A stretch of 48,275 nt of DNA from Anaerolineae bacterium (GTDB lineage Bacteria > Chloroflexota > Anaerolineae > B4-G1). A program made the translations under genes and the position numbers. The notes beneath the pieces were generated by a model that did no database searches, had not been told where the DNA came from, and saw only the letters and a list, made by a program, of their open reading frames with translations. Positions 41,299 to 47,995 of this stretch are shown one piece after another (the first letter of the stretch is position 1; each line of letters starts with the position of its first letter). The stretch lies in contig DAOTUC010000154.1 in the NCBI GenBank assembly GCA_034437315.1, positions 1 to 48,275 on the forward strand, given 5' to 3'.

Positions 41299-41697
41299 AT
41301 GGAGCAAGCGGATGGACGGCTTGTCGCTCGTGTGCGAGAGGGCGATTTAGACGCTCTGGGAGAGCTATACCGGCGTTATGCGGATATGGTCTATCGCACC
41401 GCTTACGCCATCACCCGGGACGAGCGGAGCGCCGAGGACATTTTGCAAGAAACGTTCATTCGCGTCTACACCTACGCCGACGCCATCGACGAGACGTTAG
41501 CGCTGGGGCCGTGGTTATACCGGGTGACGGTCAACCAGTCCTACGATTGGATGAACCGGATCAAGCGCTGGTTCTATTCAGTTCAAGACGTATGGGATCG
41601 GTGGGCTGCGCCTTCCCACTGGCGGCCCGAGAAGGCGGCCAAAGAGCAGGAATGGCGAATCGCCCTTCATCAGGCATTGGGTTTTAGACCGTCATAG
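41299..41697 (+). CDS. ECF-type sigma-70 family protein fragment: region 2 only, region 4 missing.
   Basis: REGDLDALGELYRRYADMVYRTAYAITRDERSAEDILQETFIRVY...LGPWLYRVTVNQSYDWMNR covers sigma regions 2.1-2.4. The ORF stops about 40 aa later, with no HTH-containing region 4. Confidence 0.7.
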   Translation: MEQADGRLVARVREGDLDALGELYRRYADMVYRTAYAITRDERSAEDILQETFIRVYTYADAIDETLALGPWLYRVTVNQSYDWMNRIKRWFYSVQDVWDRWAAPSHWRPEKAAKEQEWRIALHQALGFRPS

Positions 41698-41779: not shown

Positions 41780-42790
41780 ATGTCTGAACAACAATCTTCG
41801 AACATCTTGCTCGACATGAAGAACCTCAAAACCCGCTTTTATACCGAGGACGGCGTGGTGCACGCTGTCAACGGCGTTTCATACAAATTGGAAGAAGGCG
41901 GGACGTTGGGGGTCGTCGGCGAGAGTGGGTGTGGAAAGAGCGTGCACGCGCTCTCTATTATGCGCTTGATACCCAGTCCGCCGGGCCGAATTGAGGAGGG
42001 GGAAATCTGGTTTGCCGGGCGCGATTTACTGAAATTAAGTCGAAGGGATATGCACCACGTCCGTGGCGCGGAAATCGCGATGGTCTTCCAGGACCCGATG
42101 ACGTCGTTGAACCCGGTGTACACTGTAGGCTTCCAGATCGTGGAGGCGCTCAAACTTCACCAGGGAATGGACCAGGCGCAGTCTCGAGATCGGGCGACGG
42201 AGTTGCTGATGATGGTTGGCATCCCCGAGGCGCGTCAGCGGCTGGACGATTACCCGCATCAATTCTCCGGCGGGATGCGCCAGCGGGCGATGATCGCGAT
42301 GGCGCTCTCGTGTAATCCCAAACTCCTGATCGCCGACGAGCCGACGACCGCCCTGGACGTGACGATCCAGGCCCAGATATTGGATCTGGTCAAGCGCTTG
42401 CAGGAGAAATTGGGGATGGCGGTCATGTGGATTACCCACGACCTGGGCATCGTAGCCGGTTTAGCGATGAAGGTCAATGTGATGTATGCCGGGTACATCG
42501 TCGAGCGGGGTAATGTGAAGGACATCTATTTGCAGCCCCATCATCCTTACACGAAAGGTTTGTTAGGATCGTTGCCGCGATTGGATGCGCCGCCTGGCAC
42601 GCGCCTGGTTTCCATCCCCGGCTTGCCGCCGGACCTGGTCGATTTGCCGCCCGGTTGCCCGTTTGCCGCGCGGTGCACCTACGCCATCGACAAATGCCTG
42701 GAGGCGATGCCCCCGTTGGAGGAGATCGCTGGGGAAGGGCACATCGTCGCCTGCTGGCGGTGGAAGGACGTTGTAGGAGGGTCGAACTAA
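41780..42790 (+). CDS. Oligopeptide/dipeptide ABC transporter ATP-binding protein (OppD/DppD type).
   Basis: [11 protein letters not shown] is the Walker A. FSGGMRQR is the signature. [12 protein letters not shown] is the Walker B. The C-terminal oligopeptide-type extension is PGCPFAARC. Confidence 0.93.
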
Positions 42791-43788
42791 TGGGTGTAGA
42801 ACAACAGGAAGCTTTGGTCCAAGTTCGTCATTTGAAGAAGTACTTTCCCATCATGCGCGGAGCCGTGATCCAGCGCCACGTGGGCGACGTCAAGGCGGTC
42901 GATGGCGTCAGTTTCGACATTTACAAGGGCGAGACCCTGGGATTGGTCGGCGAGACCGGCAGCGGTAAGACCACTATCGGGCGGACCGTTTTGCGTCTCT
43001 ACGAACCGACGGCCGGAGATATCGTCTTCGACGATGTGGACCTGATGAGCCTGCGAGGGGCTGACCTGCGGGATATTCGCCGTCGGATGCAGATGATTTT
43101 CCAGGACCCGTACGCCTCGCTGAATCCCCGGATGACTGTCGGTTCTATCGTCAGCGAGCCGCTGGAGGTGCACGGCGTCGGCAATGGGCGGGAACGGCGG
43201 GAACGTGTACAGGAGTTGCTGAAATTGGTCGGTTTGAACCCGTATTTCGTCAACCGTTACCCCCACGAGTTTTCGGGCGGACAGCGGCAGCGGATTGGCA
43301 TTGCTCGCGCGTTGGCCCTGAACCCGGATTTGATCATCTGCGATGAGCCGATCTCCTCCCTCGACGTCTCCATCCAGGCCCAGGTGGTCAACTTGTTGGA
43401 AGATTTGCAGTCCCAGATGGGTTTGACCTACCTATTCATCGCCCACGACTTGAGTATGGTGCGGCACATCAGCGATCGCATGGCAGTGATGTACCTGGGT
43501 AAGATTATGGAATTGACCGACCGAGATGAGATCTATCTGAACCCCTTGCACCCGTATACGCAAGCCCTGATGTCGGCGGTGCCGGTGCCGGACCCGCTGG
43601 TCGAAGAGAAGCGGCAGCGCATCATTTTGGAGGGCGATATTCCCAGTCCCTCCGACCCACCCGTTGGCTGTAATTTCAGCACCCGTTGTCCACGGGCCAT
43701 CGACGTTTGTTCCGAGGTTGATCCGGCGTTCATCGAAGTTAGGCCGGGGCATTATTGCGCCTGCCATCTTGTTGAAGAAAAAATGTAG
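42790..43788 (+). CDS. Oligopeptide/dipeptide ABC transporter ATP-binding protein (OppF/DppF type).
   Basis: The ATG overlaps the upstream stop as [25 protein letters not shown] and [12 protein letters not shown] are present, and the C-terminus has GCNFSTRCP. The track's extension to 42655 lies inside the upstream gene. Confidence 0.93.
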
Positions 43789-43893
43789 TCAGTCGTATGA
43801 ATGAGGGGAGGTGATTCTATCGGGTATCTGAGATGTGTTCGAATGTGTGTGAAAGACTGTCGAATCTATCTAAATCTCTAAGGAGGAGAAAAC

Positions 43894-45639
43894 ATGTTTT
43901 CCAAAAAGTTGTATATCCTGGCTACACTCGTGTTAGCTGGGAGCCTCTTGCTTTCTGCCTGTGGGCAACAAGAGGTCATCAGGACTGTCGAAATCACCGT
44001 TCCGGGCGAAGAGGTTGAGGTGGTTGTCACTGCGCCGCCCGAGATGGTCGAGGTCACGCGCGAGGTCGAGGTCGAGGTCGAGGTTGAGGCGCCGACCGAG
44101 CCGGGATTGAGCGCTGCTTGCACTTACAACGCTTACCGGATGGGTTGGGTGATGGACTATGGCGATGCTGAGAACATCCTCAACGTCGTCTACCACCCCG
44201 ATTCCCCCTTCCAGTACACCTTCTGGGACGACGACGAGTACCGGGACCTGGTCGAACAGGCGCTGACCGAGTTCGACCCCGACGTCCGCGCCGACCTGTG
44301 GAGCCAGGCGGAGCAGATCCTGCTGACCGACCACGTGTCGATCATCCCCGTCTTCTACTACGATCGCACCGAGCTACTGAATCCGGACATCGAGGCGGTC
44401 TTCCCGCCCTTCGGCTCGCCGCCCGTCAAGCATTGGCGCTTGCCGGCCGGTCAGACTGAATTGATCTACCGGGTCGCGACCGAACCGCCCACACTGGACG
44501 TCAACACCGCGACCGACACCACCTCCCACCTGGTCCAGCACCAGATCATGGACGCGCTCTACGAGTACACCGCCGACGGCGAGATCGAGCCGGCGGGCGC
44601 TGTCTCCTACGAAGTTTCAGACGACGGCCTGGTCTACACCATCAACCTGCGCGAGGACGCGGCCTGGTCGGATGGCGAGCCCGTGACCGCCCAGCACTAC
44701 GTGGACGGCATCACCCGCTTGCTGGAACCCGCGACCGCCGCCGAGTACGCCTGGCTGATGTACGTGGTCGAGGGCGCCGAGGCCTTCAACACCGGCGAGA
44801 CGGACGATCCCGCCACCCTGGGCGTGCGCGCGATTGACGATTACACCCTCGAGATCACGCTGAAAGAGGCCGCCTCTTACTTCGACAGCATCCTGGCCTT
44901 CTCCACCACCTACCCCGTCCGCCTGGACGTCATCAACGAGTACGGCGAGCTGTGGGCCGAGCCCGGTAACTTCGTCGGCAATGGCGCGTTCTTGCTGACC
45001 GAATGGGCGCACGACGATTACGTGGTGGTCGAGAAGAACCCCGATTACTGGGGCGCCGCCGACGTGACGGTCGAGCGGATCACCTTCCCCATCATCATTG
45101 AGGACGCGACCGCGTTGGCCGCTTACGAGCGCGGCGAGTTGGACGTTGGCGGGTTCCCCGGCGATGAGCTGCCTCGCTTGCTAGAGGACATGCCGGATCA
45201 CGTCCGCGTCTTGACCCGCCCCGGCCCATACTACATCGGGCTGAACTTCCTCCGCGAACCCACCGACAACGTGAACCTCCGCAAGGCGCTGGCTTCGTCC
45301 ATCGACAAGCGCGCGATCCTGGACAGTGTGCTCCAGATGCCCTGGCGTCAGGACGCCTGCGGCGTGATCCCGCCCAACATCCCCGGTCACCAGGGCTGCG
45401 GCGAGGTTGGCTATGAGTTCAACCCCGACGCCGCGATGGGTTACCTGGAAGCCGCGGTGGACGAGATGGGCGTCGAGGAAGCTGGCGACATCACGCTCAA
45501 CCTCTGGTTCAACCGGGGCAACGAGGACGTTCTGGACGCAGTCGCCGAGCAGTGGGAAACCAACCTCGGCATCAACGTCAACGTGACCATCATGGAGTGG
45601 GCCGCGTACCTGGACACTCTTGATCAGTGCAACAACTAA
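43894..45639 (+). CDS. Family-5 (peptide/nickel) ABC substrate-binding lipoprotein with swapped segment order (apparent circular permutation).
   Basis: The lipobox is in LLLSAC, followed by a Glu/Val linker. Next comes AYRMGWVMDYGDAENIL...DVRADLWSQAEQILLTDHVSIIPVFYY, which is normally the C-terminal segment. Then LIYRVATEPPTLDVNTATDTTS...YEVSDDGLVYTINLREDAAWSDGEPVTA, which is normally the N-terminus. The protein ends at ...VTIMEWAAYLDTLDQCNN. SD aaggagg is present. Confidence 0.9.
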   Translation: MFSKKLYILATLVLAGSLLLSACGQQEVIRTVEITVPGEEVEVVVTAPPEMVEVTREVEVEVEVEAPTEPGLSAACTYNAYRMGWVMDYGDAENILNVVYHPDSPFQYTFWDDDEYRDLVEQALTEFDPDVRADLWSQAEQILLTDHVSIIPVFYYDRTELLNPDIEAVFPPFGSPPVKHWRLPAGQTELIYRVATEPPTLDVNTATDTTSHLVQHQIMDALYEYTADGEIEPAGAVSYEVSDDGLVYTINLREDAAWSDGEPVTAQHYVDGITRLLEPATAAEYAWLMYVVEGAEAFNTGETDDPATLGVRAIDDYTLEITLKEAASYFDSILAFSTTYPVRLDVINEYGELWAEPGNFVGNGAFLLTEWAHDDYVVVEKNPDYWGAADVTVERITFPIIIEDATALAAYERGELDVGGFPGDELPRLLEDMPDHVRVLTRPGPYYIGLNFLREPTDNVNLRKALASSIDKRAILDSVLQMPWRQDACGVIPPNIPGHQGCGEVGYEFNPDAAMGYLEAAVDEMGVEEAGDITLNLWFNRGNEDVLDAVAEQWETNLGINVNVTIMEWAAYLDTLDQCNN

Positions 45640-45659
45640 CCTAGTTTGATAGCTGCTTT

Positions 45660-45691
45660 CCCCCTGGGGTTCCCTCGGGAGCCCCAGGGGG
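45660..45691 (+). promoter_or_regulatory. GC-rich stem-loop between the SBP gene and the permease genes. It has no T-tract, so it may be a processing or stability element.
   Basis: ccccctgggg (45660-45669) pairs with ccccaggggg (45682-45691). Confidence 0.45.
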
Positions 45692-45834
45692 GCTTGAGAT
45701 TGAACGCTGATCACGAGTGTAATCACAAATTCACAAATGTGGAATAGCCCTCTACTTTATGGTTTTGTGATTGCATTTGTGGACTGGACAGAAAGCGACC
45801 TTAAGACGGGTATATTTTTTAGGAGAGTGAGAGT

Positions 45835-46968
45835 ATGCAACGATTAATCGCGCAGCGAATTATCTGGAGTATCCCGGTGCTTATCATGATCACGGTCGTC
45901 ACGTTTGGCATGATGCAGCTCGTGCCCGGCGGCCCTTTCTCTGGCTCCGCGTCGGGGCGTCCGGTCACTCCGGAGATCAGGGCCAATATGGAGGCCAAAT
46001 ACGGCTTGAATAAGCCAGCCTGGCAGCAGTACCTGAGCTATATGGAGCGCCTGTTGCTCCATTTCGACTTCGGGCCTTCTCTGCGGCGCACCGGTCGCTC
46101 GGTCAACACGATGCTCTTTGGCTCGAACTACATGGTGGACGTGTTGCGTGAGCAATTACGGGCCACGTTCGACCTGGAGGCCAGTTCGATGACGTTCACC
46201 GAGACCCCATCTCTGTTCGATTCTGAGGCGCTGGTGATTAAAACGAATGGAGAGATCATCGGCTACGTGTCTATCGGATGGCGGGAGCGATTGGATGCCA
46301 TTGGACGCTTTATGCAGTTGGCGCCGATCATGGTCTCCGCCCAGGTGGGCTTTGTCTCCATGATTTTGGCGCTCCTGATCGGCGTTCCCCTGGGTATCAT
46401 CTCCGCGCTCAGACAGAATACGCTGACTGATTACGTGGCGATGTTCTTTTCGATGTTGGGGGTCTCTATCCCTAACTTCCTGTTGGGGATTATCTTGATC
46501 CTGGTCTTCGCCTTGACCCTGGAGTGGTTGCCGACCTATGGCTGGGGGGATGATTGGAAACAGGTGATTTTGCCTGCCATCACGCTGGGCACCGGTGGCA
46601 TGGCTATTATCGCTCGCCTGACGCGGGCCAGCATGCTCGAGGTGATCCGCGCCGATTACATCCGCACCGCCCGCGCGAAGGGCCTGCAAGAACAGGTCGT
46701 CATCGTGCGGCACGCGCTGAAGAACGCGCTGATCCCCGTGACCACCGTCCTGGGGCCGATGATGGCGGCTTGGCTCACCGGTTCCTTCATGGTCGAGTGG
46801 GTCTTCTCCATCGGTGGGATCGGGAAGTTTTTCATCAGCGCCGTCACCGATCGAGACTATATGCTGATTATGGGCTCCATCATCCTGTGGTCGACCGCAT
46901 TGGTCGTGTTTAATTTGCTCGTGGACGTCGCTTATGGCTTTATCGATCCACGTATTCGCTTCGATTAA
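45835..46968 (+). CDS. Peptide ABC transporter permease (OppB/DppB type) with an enlarged first periplasmic loop.
   Basis: RIIWSIPVLIMITVVTFGMMQLVPGGP...KPAWQQYLSYM......EVIRADYIRTARAKGL......IDPRIR. Confidence 0.92.
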   Translation: MQRLIAQRIIWSIPVLIMITVVTFGMMQLVPGGPFSGSASGRPVTPEIRANMEAKYGLNKPAWQQYLSYMERLLLHFDFGPSLRRTGRSVNTMLFGSNYMVDVLREQLRATFDLEASSMTFTETPSLFDSEALVIKTNGEIIGYVSIGWRERLDAIGRFMQLAPIMVSAQVGFVSMILALLIGVPLGIISALRQNTLTDYVAMFFSMLGVSIPNFLLGIILILVFALTLEWLPTYGWGDDWKQVILPAITLGTGGMAIIARLTRASMLEVIRADYIRTARAKGLQEQVVIVRHALKNALIPVTTVLGPMMAAWLTGSFMVEWVFSIGGIGKFFISAVTDRDYMLIMGSIILWSTALVVFNLLVDVAYGFIDPRIRFD

Positions 46969-46978
46969 GGAGTAAGTC

Positions 46979-47995
46979 ATGGCTAAAAAGTTTTCTGCTT
47001 CCGAACGCCGGAAGAAAGAGGAAGAAGAGCGCTTTGTCGGGCGCGGCGTCAGTCTGTGGCAGGACGCTTGGCGGCGATTGTTGCGCAACCGGATGGCGCT
47101 CGCCGGGTTGCTCTTCGCCGCTTTGATGCTCTTCTGTTTTCTCACCGCCGATTTTCTGCCTCCCTATAGCTATCGAGAGGCAGATTACGACGATACGCGG
47201 GCGGGCCCGTCGCTCAAGCATCCGTTTGGGACCGACAAGTTAGGCCGCGACGTCTTTAGCCGTATCTGGTGGGGGACGCGGGTTTCGCTCACGGTGGCGA
47301 TCGTGGGGTCGTTGACCTCCCTGATCATCGGGGTGACCTATGGCTCCATCGCCGGTTATCTGGGCGGCAAGATCGATAATCTGATGATGCGCTTCGTCGA
47401 CGTGATGTACGGCTTCCCAACGCTATTGTTCATCATCCTCATTATGGTCGTGCTGCCCTCCAATAGTGCGATCCAGGGCATGATCAACATCTTCATCGCC
47501 ATCGGCGTCGTGGGTTGGATGGGTATGGCCCGTCTGATTCGCGGGCAGTATCTATCGTTGCGGGAAAAGGAGTTTGTCCTGGCGGCCCAGATGCTCGGCG
47601 CCGGTCCGGCGCGCATCATCTCGCGTCACCTGCTGCCCAATAGCCTGGGGCCGGCCGTCGTTTCTCTGACCTTGGGTATCCCGGGCCTGATCCTGACCGA
47701 GGCGACGCTCAGTTTCATCGGCTTGGGTGTCCCGCCGCCATACCCCAGTTGGGGGCAGATGGTCTCCGAGGGGTGGCGGGGCTTAAGGGCGATGCCCCAC
47801 CTGACGATTTTCCCCGGATTGGCCATCACGTTGACGATGTTGGCTTTCAATTTCCTGGGAGATGGGATGCGAGACGCGCTCGACCCGACGATGCGAGGCA
47901 CCGCCTTGGTCCGGGCGGCCAGGAAAAAGAGCAAGAAGGAAGCGGCCCAGGAGAAGCGAGAGAAGGCCCCTGTCGCTGAGACCGAGACCGCCTAG
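46979..47995 (+). CDS. Peptide ABC transporter permease (OppC/DppC type).
   Basis: HPFGTDKLGRDVFSRIWWG.R.SL......REKEFVLAAQMLGAG..RII.RHLLPN......LGDGMRDALDP. Confidence 0.92.
   Translation: MAKKFSASERRKKEEEERFVGRGVSLWQDAWRRLLRNRMALAGLLFAALMLFCFLTADFLPPYSYREADYDDTRAGPSLKHPFGTDKLGRDVFSRIWWGTRVSLTVAIVGSLTSLIIGVTYGSIAGYLGGKIDNLMMRFVDVMYGFPTLLFIILIMVVLPSNSAIQGMINIFIAIGVVGWMGMARLIRGQYLSLREKEFVLAAQMLGAGPARIISRHLLPNSLGPAVVSLTLGIPGLILTEATLSFIGLGVPPPYPSWGQMVSEGWRGLRAMPHLTIFPGLAITLTMLAFNFLGDGMRDALDPTMRGTALVRAARKKSKKEAAQEKREKAPVAETETA

Follow-up and report, generated by a model that had tools for sequence, protein, structure and literature searches.

The classification of ATP-binding cassette (ABC) substrate-binding proteins (SBPs) rests on fold topology, and cluster C, which includes the family-5 or SBP_bac_5 proteins such as OppA, MppA and DppE, has to our knowledge been treated so far as topologically uniform. 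In the full-text literature searched, no natural permutation of OppA/family-5 proteins is described, and the only natural SBP permutation reported there belongs to cluster B: TpMglB-2 (Tp0684) of Treponema pallidum, a circularly permuted, lipid-tethered glucose-binding lipoprotein and founder of 'cluster Bc' (PMC4990184). Here, we analyzed a stretch of 48,275 nucleotides from an Anaerolineae bacterium of the phylum Chloroflexota (assembly GCA_034437315.1, contig DAOTUC010000154.1), referred to as the window. Its plus strand carries an open reading frame (ORF) at 43894..45639 for a family-5 lipoprotein of 581 amino acids, the chain of which is almost certainly circularly permuted relative to all characterised relatives. 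We assign a probability of about 0.85 to the reading that it represents a real, functional, permuted SBP. The novelty for cluster C, which had already been supposed in the initial annotation of this DNA, thus holds within the literature searched.

The comparison with described systems gives three levels of similarity. TpMglB-2 is likewise a natural permuted ABC SBP, with a family of its own and with ligand binding preserved, and tethering was raised by its authors as a possible reason for the permutation (PMC4990184). Unlike the window protein, it is a cluster B protein with a type I two-domain fold, an unrelated sequence and another cut site, and the portion of PMC4990184 considered here does not mention a disulfide at the new termini. 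Cluster Bc is defined by homology to MglB-type proteins of cluster B, and no such homology was found for the window protein; all its matches are cluster C proteins. The likeness to TpMglB-2 is one of principle only. With OppA, MppA and DppE (8ARE, 2Z23, 4TOZ) the window protein shares approximately 30% identity over both of its segments, the predicted three-domain fold, the Arg and Asp residues of the binding strand and the OppBCDF operon, and with Gram-positive OppA also the lipoprotein anchoring. In contrast to these proteins, the last approximately 105 residues come first, the termini lie in a domain III loop at the equivalent of OppA residue 407, and each new end carries a conserved Cys. 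The third level is a canonical Anaerolineae sister clade (P0121, L015, L016, L018-L020, L022, L036, L046). If the canonical N-terminal and middle part is called segment B and the canonical C-terminal part segment A, its members are 51-60% identical to the window protein in B and 46-53% in A, have a homologous signal peptide and Glu/Val linker as well as the same second Cys pair, and show the gene order oppD-oppF-SBP-oppB-oppC where flanks are present (L015, L016, L046, partly L020). However, they have the canonical order and an intact loop C-NNTKEELAG-C, whereas in the permuted family the old termini are fused and nothing but the loop interior is missing.

Segment order and conservation of the permuted family

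The window protein is arranged as signal peptide-linker-A-junction-B, compared to signal peptide-linker-B-loop-A in P0121 (597 aa), the closest canonical relative found. BLASTP paired residues 190-581 with residues 88-480 of P0121 (59% identity, both ending in LDQCNN) and residues 74-181 with residues 486-593 (50% identity, E 6e-33). When the protein was compared to PDB chains by phmmer, every good OppA match was split into two out-of-order stretches. For example, residues 185-577 correspond to 17-415 of Bacillus subtilis OppA 8are_A (E 1.7e-63) and residues 78-172 to 419-512 of the same chain (E 1.2e-8). The order is swapped in the same way against Yersinia pestis OppA 2z23, where segment A also matches 2z23_A 408-495, and against B. 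subtilis DppE 8ay0. The NCBIfam full-length OppA model was matched in two stretches as well, the best one with residues 187-579 on model positions 38-433 of 543. These out-of-order segments bear out the circular permutation of a family-5 SBP lipoprotein that had been proposed in the initial annotation, including its details: the lipobox (LSAC, Cys23) and the Glu/Val linker (residues 24-73) are followed by the canonical C-terminal part (segment A, residues 74-181), and the C-terminal end ...LDQCNN, aligned with P0121 residue 480, coincides with the point where canonical proteins run on into the MGW.DY.D strand. Between the two segments, the junction ...FPPFGSPPVKHW-RLPAGQTE-LIYRVATEPPTLD... joins the old C-terminus to the old N-terminus. 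Hence, both features that define a natural circular permutant, swapped homologous segments and a junction joining the old termini, are present.

The expectation that PF00496 should match the protein twice was not borne out. We found one match, residues 230-576 on positions 1-334 of 368 of the hidden Markov model (HMM), with 238.8 bits compared to a gathering cut-off of 32.4; it breaks off at the extreme end of the protein and is not the collinear match over the whole chain that would have spoken against a permutation. Segment A alone gave no match in Pfam. PF00496 covers only the 'Middle' of SBP_bac_5 proteins and barely reaches the transposed part, and the two-match prediction fails despite a real permutation because segment A alone is invisible to Pfam. 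The protein is placed in SBP_bac_5/cluster C by its PF00496 match, whereas its segments do not follow the canonical N-to-C order. On these alignments it is to be regarded as a permuted subclass rather than an ordinary member of the cluster, i.e. as a case of homology with altered topology.

The structural model is in line with the proposed permutation. An AlphaFold prediction from a 64-sequence alignment reached a mean predicted local distance difference test (pLDDT) of 94 and a predicted template modelling score (pTM) of 0.90, with pLDDT 90-97 in segment A; the model starts at residue 70, and residues 70-74 are below 50. Foldseek assigned a probability of 1.0 to OppA/MppA/DppE, with the best template modelling (TM) score of 0.67 (root-mean-square deviation 2.7 A) to open Escherichia coli MppA 4toz. 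The best TM values were those of open, unliganded forms. Hence, an OppA-like three-domain fold is confidently predicted.

The arrangement is common to a family. In the database, the 120 best homologues (56-94% identity, 495-899 aa) without exception carry A in front of B and stop at the same C-terminal position, and an exhaustive representative search added more distant permuted members such as P0129 (47%) and P0136 (42%). The sequences are drawn from JGI, ENA, NCBI and Logan assemblies, in which the contigs reach 244 kb. A scan of species-representative genomes, using separate tblastn searches for segments A and B, located permuted genes at approximately 17 independently assembled loci in metagenome-assembled genomes (MAGs), all of them from Chloroflexota (Anaerolineales, Thermoflexia, Anaerolineae). 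Thus, orthologues of the same order exist, and their shared order and end on independently assembled contigs exclude the misassembly that had been named as a caveat. A wider taxonomic claim, which included Actinomycetota, Dehalococcoidia and Thermomicrobiales, had to be withdrawn, since the pooled count of matched residues merged high-scoring segment pairs regardless of order and the separate searches show canonical B-then-A in these groups. Generally, tandem SBP genes in related genomes and the mostly metagenomic sources could suggest an assembly or gene-calling artefact, in which tandem SBP genes were collapsed or chimeric and the real gene is canonical, but this is effectively refuted by one order, one junction length (9 +/- 1 residues) and one C-terminal end in 138 permuted sequences down to 42% identity from several assembly sources, by substitutions among members that are mostly synonymous, and by a proper ribosome-binding site, signal peptide and stop codon.

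Furthermore, both segments are under purifying selection. Compared to closer relatives (L001, L003-L005 and L011), the ratio of non-synonymous to synonymous substitution rates (dN/dS) is 0.18-0.24 in segment A and 0.14-0.16 in segment B, with 0.29 for B against L011. For L007 and L009, which are more distant, the ratio is 0.35-0.40 in both segments (A up to 0.40 against L007). This bears on the idea of a decaying, non-functional fusion, in which an upstream gene has left segment A behind as a fragment, the true C-terminal part is gone and the SBP fold is lost. The single truncated Pfam domain and the missing match of segment A alone would fit such a decay, which is nevertheless very improbable: the selection on A is as strong as on B, segment A holds the invariant binding-strand residues and is modelled with the above-mentioned high pLDDT within one compact globule, and the gene is surrounded by an intact, conserved transporter operon.

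Binding strand, operon and putative function

The order oppD-oppF-SBP-oppB-oppC recurs in the permuted loci and in the canonical sister loci, and in L001 the same layout was confirmed by Pfam assignments. Across permuted loci the ATPases are 64-88% and the permeases 49-90% identical, with 82-88% and 74-90%, respectively, in the closer ones. OppB/OppC permeases and OppD/OppF ATPases with oligo_HPY, which characterise cluster C systems, are thus encoded alongside the SBP. The lipobox pattern of bacterial lipoproteins, [LVI][ASTVI][GAS]C, is matched by MFSKKLYILATLVLAGSLLLSAC, which predicts lipidation of Cys23; this residue is conserved in 110 of the 121 aligned homologues, and signal peptide residues 1-24 pair with residues 1-24 of P0121 (54% identical). 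The Glu/Val linker is poorly conserved and varies in length among the aligned homologues.

The ligand-binding strand lies in the transposed segment. R82 and D88, six and twelve residues past Cys76, align with the OppA residues Arg413 and Asp419 of 2z23, so that the binding-strand residues of OppA-type proteins are present by alignment; D88 is invariant and R82 occurs in at least 90% of the 64 sequences. We take Arg413 and Asp419 from OppA crystallography to bind the carboxylate and the alpha-amino group of the ligand and to lie on the strand with which the peptide backbone pairs. The protein is most likely a membrane-anchored cluster C, family-5 lipoprotein that supplies the OppBC/OppDF importer, encoded by the flanking genes, with peptides. 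With regard to the ligand, operon context and binding-strand residues make a peptide specificity most likely.

The published OppA domain boundaries would place both old termini in domain I and position 407 in domain III. The location of both old termini in domain I would explain why a short junction is sufficient. Moreover, the lipid tether would now be attached to lobe 2, beside the binding strand, instead of lobe 1.

Permuted SBP domains also occur in another protein context. In the paralogues P0095, P0116 and P0118 (868-899 aa) a Hanks-type Ser/Thr kinase at the N-terminus and one transmembrane helix precede the permuted domain. These proteins keep both terminal Cys, and their genes are found within a cluster of kinase, PP2C, FHA and VWA genes (locus L002 8001-10700). 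The transmembrane helix would likewise be attached to lobe 2. Furthermore, the MAG CAZYSK01 has, besides the operon copy (L004), another permuted copy that apparently stands alone (L010) and matches the kinase-fused gene of L002 in sequence.

Hence, one could assume that the permuted domain is primarily a signalling sensor instead of a transport receptor and that the permutation was selected to suit tethering to membrane signalling proteins. The kinase-fused paralogues with both Cys in kinase/PP2C/FHA clusters and the coexistence of the two copies in one MAG are consistent with this assumption. However, the window copy and most members are stand-alone lipoproteins in oppDF-SBP-oppBC operons with highly conserved permease and ATPase genes, and the kinase fusions are a minority that clusters at 57-67% identity, which suggests secondary recruitment. 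A primary role in signalling is therefore unlikely, and we prefer the transport receptor.

Cysteines at the new termini

The terminal Cys pair and its descent from a pre-existing Cys-Cys loop are points beyond the initial annotation. Each new terminus is marked by a Cys residue, Cys76 in …SAAC|TYNAYRMGW and Cys579 in …LDQC|NN; the chain has been opened in the surface loop that connects the helix ...EWAAYLDTLDQC with the ligand-binding strand C-TYNAYRMGWVMDY. Cys76 is present in 117 of 121 aligned homologues, the remaining 4 being N-terminal truncations, and Cys579 in 120 of 121, with 1-8 residues following it across the family. Both were found in 137 of the 138 permuted sequences, including the kinase-fused paralogues and the most distant members.

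In the canonical sister clade, one loop at the cut site starts and ends with these two Cys (12 of 12 sequences), as in LDQC-NNTKEELAG-C-EFNAYRMGWVMDY; the closest canonical relatives have the form C-x(5-10)-C. Altogether, a C-x(n)-C loop occurs at this site in 39 of 128 canonical relatives, with n ranging from approximately 5 to more than 40, which points to a length-tolerant and probably disulfide-closed surface loop. Cys579 corresponds to the first and Cys76 to the second Cys of this canonical loop. Compared to P0121, the loss in the permuted family is confined to the loop interior TKEEL and both Cys are retained, hence a disulfide most probably stands in for the missing peptide link. Moreover, in Y. 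pestis OppA 2z23, a protein with a minimal loop, both Cys align to residue 407 +/- 1; the two must therefore be adjacent in the fold. From these alignments we consider it likely that a disulfide between Cys76 and Cys579 staples the new termini together. Such a bond would keep the first strand, with its residues Arg82 and Asp88, in register.

The terminal Cys could also be conserved for another reason, e.g. metal binding or pairing with other Cys residues, given that two more Cys (489 and 502) are conserved and that Cys579 is missing from one member. Cys489 and Cys502 are, however, jointly lost in 13 homologues, Cys489 being changed to Tyr or His and Cys502 deleted or replaced, and this loss is independent of Cys76/Cys579. 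Hence, Cys489 and Cys502 are probably paired with each other in a second disulfide; a comparable second Cys pair exists in canonical P0121. Furthermore, Cys76 and Cys579 go back to the opposite ends of a single loop and align at one canonical position. A different role of the terminal Cys is thus rather doubtful, and the disulfide between the new termini is favoured.

Origin of the permutation, further features and implications

To place the permuted sequences among their relatives, they were un-permuted to B+A order and a neighbour-joining tree was built. All permuted sequences fall in one clade (49 of 49 tips) with zero canonical sequences inside, and the canonical Anaerolineae clade with the Cys loop is its sister. 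The bootstrap value of the permuted clade is 87% (261/300) without P0124, a differently permuted protein discussed below, and 93% without two long-branch members. This topology makes a single permutation event in Anaerolineae probable.

The initial annotation had suggested a duplication-fusion-truncation route. It would comprise a tandem duplication, then an in-frame fusion and finally the loss of both outer parts. The raw material for such a route exists, since tandem SBP genes are present in related genomes and fused tandem SBP_bac_5 proteins of the order B-A-B-A were found (P0132, P0137, P0152, P0169, P0222). P0132, P0137, P0152 and the multi-unit protein P0127 are 27-33% identical to the window protein and contain A-B junctions similar to its own, i.e. 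they are the kind of intermediate a permutation can be cut from; however, they have complete units on both sides and are not ancestors of the permuted Anaerolineae lineage. P0127 (2843 aa) combines BTAD, AAA_16 and TPR domains with four SBP_bac_5 units and, by its domains, looks like a STAND/SARP-type regulator with SBP domains as sensors. Two loci, L028 and L031, were considered as A-B-A fused intermediates and rejected, because ORF inspection puts the first A in a separate upstream SBP gene. On the comparisons made here, the route is plausible.

Other cut sites were sought among the 150 best 50%-identity representatives, and several full-length relatives with their own signal peptide and lipobox are permuted elsewhere. 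P0233/P0305 (L071 6001-7629) and P0251 are cut at approximately segment-B position 315-330, P0205 at 250-274, P0248 (cluster n=4) and P0260 at 112-120, and P0250 within segment A. P0305 was found on 22 contigs and in an oppABCDF operon, its flanking genes suggest a Firmicutes-like host, and Pfam matches it in two stretches, the best with residues 264-526 on HMM 4-254. P0124 (595 aa; L073 6001-7788) is cut at approximately segment-B position 116 with an intact Cys-Cys loop, and its locus is positionally orthologous to that of the window: extracytoplasmic function (ECF) sigma factor, small ORF, oppD, oppF, SBP, oppB, oppC. A database search for a second member of this type found none, and P0124 is located on two contigs, possibly from one sample. 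It may have arisen when a common fused ancestor was resolved a second time, or it may be an assembly oddity.

In total, at least five different cut sites were found among the relatives retrieved. Tentatively, and with odds slightly below even, we propose that natural permutation has recurred in family-5 SBPs, which would be a hot spot for such events, with fused tandem SBPs as the source. The cut in Anaerolineae would have used a pre-existing, disulfide-bounded and length-variable loop, the disulfide would replace the peptide bond before the binding strand, and the tether would have moved from lobe 1 to lobe 2, which would alter the presentation to the permease or to the fused kinase. The window protein would then be the founding example of a 'cluster Cc'.

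Some observations weigh against the account given here. In the member P0047, Cys579 is replaced by Ser. The Foldseek alignment covered approximately 420 of 512 residues and segment B only, as expected because a sequential aligner was used on a permuted chain. The bootstrap value of the permuted clade is only 44% when P0124 is included, because P0124 groups with this clade (76%). Moreover, no duplication intermediate was found in the permuted or the sister clade among the relatives retrieved. The 195-nt spacer 45640-45834 likewise showed no remnant of a second copy by tblastn and three-frame translation. Finally, the identity to characterised OppA proteins is approximately 30%, therefore the substrate could be another oligopeptide-like compound.

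The features of the locus are compiled in Table 1. The hairpin behind the SBP gene has perfect arms (CCCCCUGGGGUUCC...GGGAGCCCCAGGGGGG), and the region 45636-45720 folds with -42.8 kcal/mol (z = -4.5); it was not called in a scan for intrinsic terminators. As judged from its sequence, it may be an intra-operon element that stabilises or attenuates the RNA and thereby raises the expression of the SBP relative to the permeases. Upstream, the window is syntenic to L001 with trmD and the ECF sigma factor. The 132-aa ORF at 41299-41697 between trmD and oppD resembles only region 2 of an ECF sigma factor, whereas its counterpart in L001 and L073 is a full sigma factor of 187-199 aa followed by an ORF of approximately 115 aa; the window ORF may be truncated or its start or frame mis-set.

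Table 1. Coordinates of the permuted SBP gene, its parts and the neighbouring genes in the window.
Feature	Coordinates	Strand	Remark
oppD-type ATPase gene	41780..42790	+	orthologues 82-88% identical, same position in permuted loci
oppF-type ATPase gene	42790..43788	+	inferred start ~42790 (MGVEQQ...)
Ribosome-binding site GGAGG	43882..43886	+	8 nt ahead of ATG; read from sequence
Signal peptide with lipobox L-S-A-C	43894..43962	+	Cys23 = predicted lipidated first mature residue
Glu/Val-rich flexible linker	43963..44112	+	residues 24-73, lipid anchor to folded domain
Segment A	44113..44436	+	residues 74-181, transposed canonical C-terminal part with ligand-binding strand YRMGWVMDY
Cys76	44119..44121	+	base of new N-terminus, proposed disulfide partner of Cys579
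Junction RLPAGQTE	44437..44460	+	residues 182-189, old C-terminus to old N-terminus; between two BLASTP segments
Segment B	44461..45636	+	residues 190-581, canonical N-terminal and middle part, ends LDQCNN
Cys489 and Cys502	45358..45399	+	second probable disulfide
Cys579	45628..45630	+	third residue from new C-terminus, proposed partner of Cys76
14-bp G+C-rich hairpin	45660..45691	+	no T tract; 21 nt past SBP stop codon
oppB-type permease gene	45835..46968	+	
oppC-type permease gene	46979..47995	+	

SBP domains of canonical order were also observed in other protein contexts. One of these is encoded in the window itself, by a minus-strand ORF (1-2932; at least 977 aa) that is cut off by the left window boundary. 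Its C-terminal part is, as already indicated in the initial annotation, an SBP_bac_5 domain of canonical order (…EWAVFLNQLRNEQHHIFCAMWVADYPDPDNFL…). Since the start of this domain lacks a signal peptide, it is probably a cytoplasmic sensor rather than a transport SBP; the N-terminal part looks, by eye and by comparison with P0127, like a STAND/AAA-TPR regulator. Moreover, giant proteins (P0122 with 2077 aa; P0130, P0134, P0139 and P0147, 2000-3900 aa) contain a canonical SBP_bac_5 domain of the Cys-loop sister type, which in P0122 is located amid PKD, beta-helix/NosD, fn3 and purple-acid-phosphatase-N domains.

OppA-based and other periplasmic binding protein-based biosensors depend on permissive sites for new termini or insertions. 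The equivalent of OppA position 407 is a naturally marked permissive site, and several others exist in the relatives; if family-5 SBPs are indeed a hot spot of permutation, they would offer a natural blueprint for where OppA-like scaffolds accept new termini. The canonical sister with an intact Cys-Cys loop and the permuted family with an opened loop and both Cys kept form a clear before/after pair, which suggests that a pre-existing disulfide can make a backbone break tolerable. For genome annotation, the example means that permuted SBPs are under-described by domain-based methods, the transposed part being missed entirely by PF00496. Furthermore, the tether on the other lobe raises the question of the way in which a tethered SBP docks on its permease and of the signalling mechanism of SBP-kinase fusions. 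Generally, a large and conserved permuted subclass extends the classification of cluster C, as TpMglB-2 did for cluster B.

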